The translations under genes and the position numbers were made by a program. Positions 7,569 to 10,223 of a DNA stretch of 32,000 bases are shown piece by piece (positions within the stretch are counted from its first letter, which is position 1; each line of letters opens with the position of its first letter). This DNA comes from Mucisphaera calidilacus (GTDB lineage: Bacteria > Planctomycetota > Phycisphaerae > Phycisphaerales > Phycisphaeraceae): positions 180,001 through 212,000 of the forward strand of contig NZ_CP036280.1 in assembly GCF_007748075.1 (NCBI RefSeq). Reading direction: 5' to 3'. The notes beneath the pieces are model-generated. The model was not told where the DNA came from. It saw only the letters and a list, made by a program, of their open reading frames with translations, and did not search any database.

Positions 7569-7610
7569 CGCCTGATGTCCCCACGGAGACGTCAGGCGTC
7601 TTATCATTGG
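7569..7610 (+). terminator. Possible terminator or attenuator hairpin between the sigma-factor gene and argG
   Basis: CGCCTGATGTC (7569-7579) pairs with GACGTCAGGCG (7588-7598): 11 bp including one G-U, 8-nt loop. It is followed by a T-rich but interrupted TCTTATCATT. Confidence 0.35.
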
Positions 7611-7631
7611 GGTTTCCCTCTGGAGAGTGCC

Positions 7632-8867
7632 ATGTCCGCGAAAGACAACCCCAAGAAGATCGTGCTCGCCTACTCGGGCGGGCTGGACACGTCCGTGATC
7701 CTGCCCTGGCTCAAGGATCGTTACCCCGGCGTCAAGCTGGTGGCTTTTGCCGCTGAGCTGGGTCAGGGCGATGAGTTGAAGGGGATTGAGGAGAAGGCGT
7801 ACGCGTCGGGCGCGGACGAGGTGGTGGTGAAGGACCTGCGCCGGGAGTTTGCGGAGGAGTACTGCTACCCGATGATCCGTGCGCACGCGGTGTACGAGAC
7901 GGATTACCTGCTGGGAACGAGTATCGCCCGTCCGCTGATCGCCAAGCACCAGGTGCTGGCGGCGAAGCAGACAAAGGCAGACGCGGTGGGTCACGGCGCG
8001 ACGGGCAAGGGGAACGATCAGGTCCGTTTCGAGCTGACGTACCGGGCGCTGAACCCGCGGCTGAAGATCGTGTCGCCCTGGAAGGATCCGGCGTTCCTGG
8101 CGTCGGGCCTGACGGACCGCGAGACGGCGATTGACTACGCGAAGAAGCACAAGATCCCCATCGAGCAGAGCAAGAAGAAGATCTACTCGCGTGACCGCAA
8201 CCTCTGGCACATCTCGCACGAGGGCGCGGAGATCGAGGACCCGGCGAGCGAGCCGTCGTGGAAGAACTGCCTGGTGATGTCGTTGACGCCTGAGAAGGCG
8301 CCGAACAAGTCGGCGACGGTGACCCTCGGCTTTGCCAGGGGCAATCCGGTTTCGATCGACGGCGAGAAGCTGCGTGGCGAGCAGATCATCGAGAAGCTCA
8401 ACGCGTTGGGCGGTCGGCACGCGGTGGGCACGACGCTGCTGGTCGAGAACCGGCTGGTGGGGATGAAGTCACGGGGCGTCTACGAGACGCCCGGCGGGAC
8501 GATTCTGTACGAGGCGCACAAGGCGCTGGAGCAGGTCTGCCTGGAGCGTGACCTGTTTCACGAGAAGATCCGGTTGGCGTCGCGGTACGCGGAGCTGGTC
8601 TACAACGGCCAGTGGTTCCACCCGTTGCGTGAGGCGTTGCAGGCGTTCTTCGACAGGGCGAACCAGGTGGTGACGGGCGAGGTCAAGGTGCGGCTGTACA
8701 AGGGCACGGCGACGGCGGTGGAGGCGAGCAGCCCGAAGTCGCTTTACGACGAGAAGCTGGCGAGTTTCGCGATGGACGGCTACGACGTGACGGCGGCCCG
8801 AGGCTTTATTGATCTCTATGGTCTGCCCATGACGGTGGCGGGTCGCCGGCAGCCACCGAAGCACTGA
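7632..8867 (+). CDS. argG: Argininosuccinate synthase
   Basis: MSAKDNPKKIVLAYSGGLDTSV carries the N-type ATP-pyrophosphatase motif. HGATGKGNDQVRFE and ENRLVGMKSRGVYETPGG are also present. I prefer the ATG at 7632 (GGAGAG RBS) over the upstream in-frame ATG at 7575. Confidence 0.95.
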   Translation: MSAKDNPKKIVLAYSGGLDTSVILPWLKDRYPGVKLVAFAAELGQGDELKGIEEKAYASGADEVVVKDLRREFAEEYCYPMIRAHAVYETDYLLGTSIARPLIAKHQVLAAKQTKADAVGHGATGKGNDQVRFELTYRALNPRLKIVSPWKDPAFLASGLTDRETAIDYAKKHKIPIEQSKKKIYSRDRNLWHISHEGAEIEDPASEPSWKNCLVMSLTPEKAPNKSATVTLGFARGNPVSIDGEKLRGEQIIEKLNALGGRHAVGTTLLVENRLVGMKSRGVYETPGGTILYEAHKALEQVCLERDLFHEKIRLASRYAELVYNGQWFHPLREALQAFFDRANQVVTGEVKVRLYKGTATAVEASSPKSLYDEKLASFAMDGYDVTAARGFIDLYGLPMTVAGRRQPPKH

Positions 8868-8897
8868 GCGTGACGAACAGGATGATTCGATCTTTTG

Positions 8898-8930
8898 CGG
8901 GCCGTGCCTCTGAGGCGCGGCCCGTTTTTT
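8898..8930 (+). terminator. Rho-independent terminator downstream of argG
   Basis: CGGGCCGTGCC (8898-8908), loop TCTGA, GGCGCGGCCCG (8914-8924), then TTTTTT (8925-8930). Confidence 0.75.
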
Positions 8931-9116
8931 GTGCATGATTCCCGGTTTATCCAGTTGAACGTGAAGGGGGGCAAGGCTTGCGGGGTGCGGTCGTGAATTG
9001 TGGCCGGAGGCTGTTTTTTGAGCTTCTTTGAGTTGGAGTGAGGCCTGTTGAATCGCATACTCCGGTGGCAGCCGGAAGGGCGGCTGACTACGAACCACTC
9101 CGTGAAAGGGAGAACT

Positions 9117-9911
9117 ATGCGTGGATGGATGAGCGCGGCCGCTGTGGCGGCCTGCGGAATCATGGTGGGCAACGCCGAGGCGACGAGCGTCGTGACGCTC
9201 GACTGGCAGGGTTACGTCGGCGGCAGCATCAAGACGAATCTGGGCAACCGCAACGCGGGCCTGATGCGTTGGAGCCAGTCGGCGGGCGACGCGGTCTCGG
9301 TGAACCTGACCGACGTCACCAAGAAGTCGGGTGGCGGGACGATCACGGGCTTCCTGGCCTTCTGCATCGAGCCGCTCGAGTCGCTGCACAACGGCGGCAA
9401 CGAGTTCGCGGTGCTCGAGCCTGAGCAGGCCCCGAACAAGCCGGCCCCGATGGGCGCGATCCGTGCCGAGAACATGGGCAAGCTGTTCGAGGTTGGCTTC
9501 CTGGGCACGTCGGAAGACGACTGGAAGGTCAACGGCTCGTTCGACATGAACTACATCAAGGCGTTCCAGCTCGCGGTGTGGGAGGTTGTGAACGAGGCCG
9601 TGGTGAACGGCATGCAGACGCTGAACATCCTCAAGGGTGACACGGCGGACCGCGGCGGCTTCTACAGCAACTACTCGGACAGCCACGCGATTGCCTCGCT
9701 GTCGCAGAGCCTGCTCGATCAGGCGATGGCCTCGGACACCTCGGCGAACCTGATTGCCTTCGGTGCTCCGTTTGAGGACGTGACGCGTCGCAGCCAGGAT
9801 CAGATCACGCTGTCCTCGACGCCCCCGGCTCCGCCCATGGTCCCGACGCCCGCCGCCGCCGCGGCCGGCCTCCTGGGTCTGGCGGGTCTCGCGGGTCGCC
9901 GTGGCCGCTAA
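9117..9911 (+). CDS. Secreted PEP-CTERM-anchored protein with thioester-domain-like Cys and Gln motifs
   Basis: Start at ATG 9117 (GGGAGA RBS). The signal peptide is MRGWMSAAAVAACGIMVGNAEA. The C-terminus is PPMVPTPAAAAAGLLGLAGLAGRRGR: a Pro-rich motif, a hydrophobic helix and an Arg cluster, which is PEP-CTERM-type architecture. Internal FCIEP and FQLAVWE motifs are discussed in the findings. Confidence 0.75.
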   Translation: MRGWMSAAAVAACGIMVGNAEATSVVTLDWQGYVGGSIKTNLGNRNAGLMRWSQSAGDAVSVNLTDVTKKSGGGTITGFLAFCIEPLESLHNGGNEFAVLEPEQAPNKPAPMGAIRAENMGKLFEVGFLGTSEDDWKVNGSFDMNYIKAFQLAVWEVVNEAVVNGMQTLNILKGDTADRGGFYSNYSDSHAIASLSQSLLDQAMASDTSANLIAFGAPFEDVTRRSQDQITLSSTPPAPPMVPTPAAAAAGLLGLAGLAGRRGR

Positions 9912-9946: not shown

Positions 9947-9984
9947 AAAACGCCGTGCCCCGTTCTGGGGTACGGCGTTTTTTT
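9947..9984. terminator. Strong, potentially bidirectional rho-independent terminator
   Basis: AAAA, CGCCGTGCCCC (9951-9961), loop GTTCT, GGGGTACGGCG (9967-9977), then TTTTTTT (9978-9984). It sits between convergent genes. Confidence 0.8.
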
Positions 9985-10013: not shown

Positions 10014-10223
10014 TCAGGCGGCGTCGTCTTCGGGCAGCTTGAGGCCGGGGACGACCTGGCCGTGCGCGACCTCGGTGCAGCGTGTGAGCAGTGCCTTGGG
10101 GTGCTCATGGGCGAGGCGGCGTTCGGCGTCGTGTCGGTCGGCGGCGATGAACTTGACGCGTCGGCGGAGGACGCCGTTGGCGTCGATGAAGTCCATCTCG
10201 AACTGTCGTGCGAATTCGGGCAT
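10014..10223 (-). CDS. Small hypothetical protein (69 aa)
   Basis: Codon position 3 is very GC-rich (ccc, ttc, gac, atc, gcc, aac, ggc, gtc and so on) and the composition is non-repetitive. The overlapping plus-strand ORF is G/V/D/E-rich and shadow-like. The start lies only about 30 nt downstream of a terminator, so expression is uncertain. Confidence 0.4.
   Translation of the reverse strand: MPEFARQFEMDFIDANGVLRRRVKFIAADRHDAERRLAHEHPKALLTRCTEVAHGQVVPGLKLPEDDAA

Follow-up and report, generated by a model that had tools for sequence, protein, structure and literature searches.

A candidate thioester domain with a PEP-CTERM-type sorting tail in the planctomycete Mucisphaera calidilacus

Introduction

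To our knowledge, no bacterial adhesin domain other than the thioester domain (TED) forms a covalent bond with its target. TEDs have so far been regarded as belonging to Gram-positive pathogens. Here we describe a TED-like protein from a diderm, the planctomycete Mucisphaera calidilacus. Its gene lies at positions 9,117 to 9,911 of a 32,000-nucleotide stretch of the genome (assembly GCF_007748075.1, contig NZ_CP036280.1, positions 180,001 to 212,000 of the forward strand), which we refer to as the window and by which we number nucleotide positions. A sequence-only reading of the window by a model had proposed that the gene encodes a PEP-CTERM surface protein with an internal thioester between Cys83 and Gln151, and the analysis reported here follows up that proposal.

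Two classes of TED are useful for comparison. Class I includes Cpa, SfbI and FbaB of Streptococcus pyogenes, PnTIE of S. pneumoniae, CpTIE of Clostridium perfringens and FNE of S. equi (5dcq), the last of which shares homology with Cpa's thioester region (PMC8473114). The class I fold consists of a six-stranded antiparallel barrel and a bundle of three helices, with the Cys on strand C, a Gln and a Trp on helix alpha2, the thioester Gln on the final strand, Q, and a linker of about 10 residues from alpha3 to the penultimate strand (PMC6194298). The thioester Gln occupies a weak PhiQ-zeta-PhiPhi motif on that last strand, 129–153 residues after the Cys in the structures quoted; Cys109-Gln261, Cys94-Gln247 and Cys138-Gln267 are example pairs (PMC4450167, PMC6194298). 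The Gln and Trp of the central helix belong to a different motif, TQxA(I/V)W. They hydrogen-bond the Cys backbone and are not needed for the bond to form, mutagenesis having found the Gln dispensable for the thioester; the TQxxPhiW form of this motif is common, not universal, in TEDs (PMC4450167, PMC6194298).

Class II is represented by BaTIE of Bacillus anthracis (6fwv; PMC6194298), SaTIE of Staphylococcus aureus, EfmTIE86 of Enterococcus faecium and the TIE of B. subtilis pLS20 (TIEpLS20), an adhesin whose TED is supported by mutagenesis (PMC8092201). These are long sortase-anchored stalk adhesins, and their TEDs carry a seven-stranded beta-sandwich of about 75 residues between alpha3 and strand P, which forms a slipknot. 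TEDs have been described as restricted to Gram-positive bacteria (PMC4450167), and a paper of October 2026 still places them across Firmicutes and Actinobacteria (PMC13685950).

The other system of relevance is the PEP-CTERM cargo of Haft's EpsH/XrtA system, e.g. the floc protein PepA of Zoogloea and Aquincola. Full-text literature searches returned no paper that links thioester domains to PEP-CTERM/exosortase cargo; the sole co-occurrence was an entry in a reference list.

In this work we argue, with a probability of roughly 0.6, that the gene encodes a Sec-exported, probably exosortase-sorted protein with a single compact class-I-like TED and a putative Cys83-Gln227 thioester, which would serve as a covalent adhesin or cross-linker.

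Results

Conserved motifs and the protein family

The 264-amino-acid (aa) product is made of three parts: a signal peptide, a single domain of about 210 aa, and a tail of VPTP, a hydrophobic segment and RRGR (the C-terminus reads ...PPMVPTPAAAAAGLLGLAGLAGRRGR). Both segments on which the sequence-only reading was built are present in the translation. The candidate thioester cysteine, Cys83 (TGC, 9,363–9,365), lies inside GFLAFCIEPLE, and IKAFQLAVWEVV holds Gln151 (CAG, 9,567–9,569), accompanied by Trp155 (TGG, 9,579–9,581). A further residue is of interest. Gln227 (codon 9,795–9,797) lies on the last predicted strand, 144 residues after Cys83, and is our candidate for the thioester glutamine.

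HMMER, run exhaustively against 1.8 billion representative proteins, returned 73 relatives, all of 208–294 aa, and a scan of one genome per species added at least 200 further loci. Conservation was counted over 213 unique relatives, an earlier alignment (A1) holding 76. Trp155 is kept in all 213 relatives, Cys83 and Gln151 in 211 each, Gln227 in 207 and Asp228 in 205, while position 82 is F, Y or W in 203 and position 85 is D or E in 198. The resulting motifs, FC[ITV][DE], AFQxA[VI]WE and QD, are more than chance matches because they are near-invariant across this set. The spacing between the Cys and the last-strand Gln has a family median of 131 residues and a range of 108–163. The mature domain has no Cys other than Cys83 in 182 of the 213 members, which argues against a role in a disulfide.

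Relatives that carry a name in their source are called hypothetical, PEP-CTERM or MYXO-CTERM proteins, and none of them is named a thioester protein. The carriers include many Phycisphaerae, other Planctomycetota, Acidobacteriota and Alpha-, Beta- and Gammaproteobacteria, among the last three groups Methylomonas, Accumulibacter, Gallionella, Rhodoferax, Paracoccaceae and Sphingomonadales. With nine candidates scored per genome, a full-length match was found in at least 16 of 301 sampled Planctomycetota genomes, concentrated in the order of the host itself. A metagenome-assembled genome (MAG) labelled 'Bacillota bacterium' also carries a family member (L045 / L092, contig JBLNDH010000670.1). 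TED matches occur in 2 of 151 sampled genomes of the phylum to which the genome collection assigns this MAG, and its 'Bacillota' label or its binning may be misleading.

A good example of the domain in another setting is found in the cultured planctomycete Kolteria novifilia Pan216 (NZ_CP036279.1; L085:5269-7590, + strand). Here a multidomain protein of 773 aa, without a PEP-CTERM tail, carries the same domain at aa 198–383 with all motifs intact in the HMM (hidden Markov model) alignment, followed by the Pfam domain pAdhesive_15 ('putative adhesive') and a CBM_2 cellulose-binding module. This fusion provides independent support, from domain context, for a role as an adhesin.

Predicted fold

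AlphaFold2, run with the 76-sequence alignment, gave a model with a mean predicted local distance difference test score (pLDDT) of 87.7 and a predicted template modelling score (pTM) of 0.82; run on the single sequence it gave a pLDDT of 32.7. The model has strands at residues 25–40, 43–57, 76–83 and 94–100, helices at 113–127, 144–159 and 191–205, and, after a linker of six residues, a C-terminal hairpin at 212–219/222–233. This is the order of elements in class I TEDs. The short linker leaves no room for the class II beta-sandwich.

In a Foldseek search of the PDB the two chains of FNE of S. equi (5dcq), the best match, and BaTIE (6fwv) took the top three places, at probabilities of 0.91–0.98, and all other matches had probabilities of 0.14 or lower. 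The highest probability, 0.98, belongs to BaTIE, a class II TED, with which the protein shares the core lobe and the three landmark residues. Several features are shared with class I. The domain has about 200 aa and runs from N-terminal strands through three helices and a short linker to a C-terminal hairpin, without a beta-sandwich insert; its Cys-to-Gln spacing of 144 compares with 129–153 in solved structures; and it stands directly after the signal peptide of a protein that ends in a sorting signal. The differences from class I are also clear. The host is a diderm planctomycete and not a member of the Bacillota or Actinomycetota, the tail is of the PEP-CTERM type for an exosortase rather than LPXTG for a sortase, and the protein has a single domain, without a stalk of isopeptide or ester domains and without fibronectin-binding repeats. 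Furthermore, helix alpha0 is absent or vestigial.

Which glutamine would bond to Cys83

The sequence-only reading had paired Cys83 with Gln151, with the caveat that 68 residues is unusually short for such a spacing. There is something to be said for this pairing: both residues are near-invariant, and the coupling of F82 with E156 (rank 47 of about 33,000 pairs, see below) suggests that the Gln151 helix packs near the Cys strand. However, in all solved TEDs the Gln of the TQxxPhiW motif sits on helix alpha2, where it just hydrogen-bonds the Cys backbone and is dispensable for the thioester (PMC4450167, PMC6194298), and in the present protein a last-strand Gln is available at the canonical spacing. 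Among the glutamines of the C-terminal strands, Gln227 alone is near-invariant. Gln229, on the same strand, was considered as the bonding residue and rejected, as it is kept in just 129 of 213 relatives.

Covariation within the family also bears on the pairing. We applied mean-field direct coupling analysis (DCA) to 183 members (an effective number of sequences, Meff, of 157; about 33,000 pairs), with four column shuffles as controls. The third strongest coupling joins A81 and Q229. At 1.61 it exceeds the shuffle maxima of 1.30–1.51 by a small margin, and column shuffles ignore phylogeny, which tempers its weight. Provided that the two strands are antiparallel, the register of this pair (i+j=310) sets Cys83 opposite Gln227; A81-Q229 alone does not fix the orientation. 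The best coupling partner of Cys83 is Gln227 and vice versa, and Cys83 couples best with Gln227 and D228, not with Gln151 (0.59 vs 0.33). The Cys83-Gln227 coupling is itself modest, since both residues barely vary. D228 in turn couples best to residues 151–153. Together these couplings lend support to a meeting of the Q..W helix with the strands of Cys83 and Gln227, as at the active site of a TED.

We conclude that Gln227, and not Gln151, is most likely the glutamine bonded to Cys83, and consider a Cys83-Gln151 thioester highly improbable. By analogy with known TEDs, Gln151 and Trp155 are a supporting helix motif and not the bond-forming one. The concern about spacing falls away with the earlier pairing, as 144 residues lies within the range seen in TED structures.

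Sorting tail and exosortases

The tail consists of VPTP, 15 small or hydrophobic residues and RRGR. The tetrad at this position differs among the 213 members, with counts of 38 for VPEP, 19 for VPAP, 13 each for VPTP and VPVP and 12 for VPLP. Of these members 208 keep P243 and 178 keep P245, and both residues are invariant in A1. Among the 76 relatives of that alignment, 29 have tails that match PF07589 and 17 have tails that match TIGR02595.

The exosortase that a PEP-CTERM-type anchor implies was sought in the genome, and two genes were found with PF09721, at 163.8 and 147.2 bits, both over the cut-off. One encodes a protein of 294 aa, with an EpsI-like neighbour, that reaches 110.2 bits on TIGR02602 (cut-off 105.55). 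The second encodes a fused form of 692 aa, for which XrtW/XrtD are the best-scoring models, at values under the cut-offs. Neither lies near the gene at 9,117–9,911. The protein is probably sorted by an exosortase, which may also cleave its VPTP tail.

About 148 open reading frames (ORFs) in the genome end in a PxP, hydrophobic and basic tail, with PEP in 114, PTP in 18 and PAP in 11. Many of the PTP tails read VPTPAAFGAG..., and the two exosortases may serve different tail classes. Some of the tail genes stand in tandem, e.g. three at C1:3298901-3301791 and four at C1:1471805-1475340.

Compared with described PEP-CTERM cargo, the protein has the expected signal peptide, the Pro-x-Pro, hydrophobic helix and Arg cluster at its C-terminus, many paralogous tails and exosortases in the same genome, and, like PepA, it is small (about 250 aa). 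It differs in that the tetrad is VPTP and not VPEP, and in that the gene does not lie beside an exosortase or exopolysaccharide locus.

Similarity to known families and the case for an accidental likeness

Pfam TED (PF08341) matches aa 81–189 of the protein at 16.5 bits (E 0.012). The same model matches 51 of the 76 relatives at E<=1, with a best value of 2.4e-5, and one relative (P0035) reaches 22.3 bits, over the cut-off of 22. A useful control is TIEpLS20, a genuine TED, whose sequence (taken from the plasmid record) scores merely 24.7 bits on PF08341 and in a phmmer search of PDB sequences finds no solved TED. Identity between solved TEDs can be as low as 12% (PMC4450167). Weak sequence scores are therefore usual in this superfamily.

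Profile-profile comparison by hhalign covered TEDs of the TIEpLS20 type, i.e. class II. A1 aligned with the single TIEpLS20 sequence at the Cys motif alone (E 0.051). When the 213-member alignment was compared with 75 such TEDs, the overall match was statistically insignificant (E 0.04) and its path set Cys83 against Cys68 of TIEpLS20, Trp155 against the helix Trp, and Gln227 against Gln256. Gln256 is the predicted thioester Gln of that protein (residue numbering from PMC8092201).

A number of results weigh against our reading, and we gather them here. The PF08341 score of this protein lies below the gathering threshold of 22 bits, and TIGR03934, the second model proposed for checking the TED assignment, gave no match to it at E<=10; what stands from that check is the sub-threshold Pfam match. 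Neither phmmer with this protein nor hmmsearch with the family profile found a TED among PDB sequences, a search that has no power in this superfamily because the TIEpLS20 control also came back empty. The hhalign comparison is insignificant, as stated. The Foldseek matches to TEDs have E about 0.02 and TM-scores of 0.36–0.46, from a model with signal peptide and tail helix still attached, so the proposed likeness to the TED fold holds for the class I order of elements and for TEDs as the sole credible matches, and falls short of conventional significance. In the helix motif a Phe replaces the Thr of TEDs (FQxAVW). The tail of this protein matches neither PF07589 nor TIGR02595, its best match being NF038039 at E 0.0097, and it stays below the PEP-CTERM HMM thresholds; of the proposed PEP-CTERM-type anchor the tail architecture is borne out and a score above these thresholds is not. 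Finally, no conserved partner gene accompanies family members in 79 related loci.

These results raise the question of whether the likeness to TEDs could be convergent or accidental, with the protein belonging to an unrelated PEP-CTERM family of unknown fold. None of the single statistics (Pfam E 0.012, Foldseek 0.02, hhalign 0.04–0.05) is conventionally significant, and 22 of the 76 members partly resemble the PepA model at their C-terminus. Against this, Pfam TED matches recur in the majority of the family, TEDs are the only credible fold matches, and the three motifs are right in order, in spacing and in secondary-structure context, with hhalign landmarks that agree. The resemblance to PepA is confined to the C-terminal part and far below threshold. 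We think that an accidental likeness is improbable.

The PepA model itself, NF033554, does not match this protein. In the 22 relatives the match is partial, sub-threshold and located in the C-terminal third; in the two members examined, P0011 (aa 165–267) and P0050 (aa 118–208), it amounts to 29–31 bits vs a cut-off of 80. A link to the floc protein PepA was rejected, since partial sub-threshold C-terminal similarity is all that speaks for it. Another model, XDP1 (NF041927), is matched by 20 of the 76 relatives. The PepA/XDP1 likeness may reflect more than the common tail.

Gene and locus

The ORF proposed earlier exists on the forward strand and translates to 264 aa. Its features are collected in Table 1. 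The closest homologue (P0003) opens with the same residues, MRGWM, in agreement with the start at 9,117. The signal peptide region has a low pLDDT, with a helix at 4–13 in the model, and the N-terminal hydrophobic segments align in all relatives.

Table 1. Features of the gene, its product and its flanks (window positions)
Feature	Position	Strand	Basis or remark
Terminator-like hairpin	8897..8925	+	13-pair stem (10 GC), then T-run; ends upstream gene
Second upstream terminator-like hairpin, weaker	9000..9014	+	
Shine-Dalgarno GGGAG	9108..9112	+	4 nt 5' of ATG; read from sequence
Coding sequence	9117..9911	+	264 aa + stop (ORF list, translation)
Signal peptide, aa 1-22 (MRGWMSAAAVAACGIMVGNAEA / TS)	9117..9182	+	A-x-A cleavage site, AEA/TS; read from sequence
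TED-like domain, aa 23-235	9183..9821	+	AlphaFold2, Foldseek, Pfam TED match
[YFL]C-Phi-zeta motif, F82-C83-I84-E85	9360..9371	+	End of predicted strand 76-83
TQxxPhiW-type motif, A149-F-Q151-L-A-V-W155-E156	9561..9584	+	In predicted helix 144-159
Last beta-strand, aa 222-233, with S226-Q227-D228-Q229-I230	9780..9815	+	
PEP-CTERM-type sorting tail, aa 241-264: M-V-P243-T-P245, hydrophobic AAAAAGLLGLAGLAG, C-terminal basic RRGR	9837..9908	+	
Intrinsic-terminator-like hairpin ending the gene	9947..9981	+	16-pair stem, then T-run

As had been proposed, the gene is flanked by terminators, two hairpins upstream and one downstream. Three such hairpins were seen around the gene, compared with 0.9 expected in shuffles. 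The upstream gene, an argininosuccinate-synthase-like ORF at 7,575–8,867, is ended by the stronger of the two upstream hairpins, which shields the ORF at 9,117–9,911 from read-through. With hairpins on both sides, the gene is a stand-alone (monocistronic) unit between the argininosuccinate-synthase-like gene and a convergent gene. An ORF of 69 aa lies at 10,014–10,223 on the reverse strand, with this gene's downstream terminator on one side and the next gene's terminator on the other.

The genome is complete (3.49 Mb, 64% G+C), and among named relatives a Mucisphaera species (Phycisphaerae, Planctomycetota) is the closest. The gene is single-copy in this genome. Elsewhere, 23 of 79 related loci have tandem copies, with two or three paralogues (e.g. 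L027, L034 and L050), and Mucisphaera sp. (L013), the nearest relative, carries two against one here. Synteny with dnaE is the only neighbour signal among these loci; it occurs in 15 of the 79, all in related genomes.

Discussion

Of the original proposal, a distant TED relative is what stands, on the combined evidence of the Pfam matches, the predicted fold and three motifs in the right order, and the proposed Cys83-Gln151 pair is what does not. This leaves the question of the bond itself. The protein could have a TED-derived fold without a thioester and act as a non-covalent surface or matrix protein, in which the Cys, Gln and Trp serve otherwise, e.g. with the cysteine as an enzymatic nucleophile or as the protein's own attachment site. 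The similarity to TEDs is remote, E156, D228 and G180 are also invariant in the family and are not defining residues of TEDs, and the environment and the anchor are unlike those of every characterised TED. In addition, thioesters are not structural determinants of the TED fold (PMC4450167), therefore conservation of the fold alone is no proof of the bond. What speaks against such a protein is the near-invariance of both Cys83 and Gln227, the lone cysteine, and the covariation that sets a last-strand Gln beside Cys83. We judge a TED fold without its thioester to be rather unlikely.

If our preferred reading is correct, that is, a single TED with a Cys83-Gln227 thioester, the chemistry would be that of known TEDs. 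As the protein folds, the side chains of Cys83, at the end of beta-strand C, and Gln227, on the last beta-strand, would react spontaneously, releasing ammonia and forming a thioester that is buried. The central helix would contribute Gln151 and Trp155, packed on the Cys strand in the manner of known TEDs. Once at the cell surface or within the exopolysaccharide matrix, the thioester would be attacked by a primary amine on the target, leaving the target attached to Gln227 by an isopeptide bond and freeing Cys83. Candidates for the target are lysine, polyamines and amino sugars. A protein acting in this way would serve as a covalent adhesin or would cross-link the matrix.

We also raise a broader hypothesis, which we hold tentatively and at slightly less than even odds: that TEDs extend beyond Gram-positive bacteria, as a large unannotated family of minimal single-domain, exosortase-sorted TEDs that free-living diderms use for covalent attachment to amine targets. 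If this is true, the targets bound covalently could be particles, other cells or the bacterium's own exopolysaccharide matrix, and there would be a chemical basis for the irreversible attachment or cross-linking of flocs and biofilm matrix.

In summary, if the domain is functional, TED chemistry would reach the diderm bacteria of the environment. The poorly understood PEP-CTERM/exosortase system would gain a cargo with a testable biochemical activity, and a minimal TED of about 210 residues, without stalk domains, would become available for mechanistic work and for protein-ligation tools.

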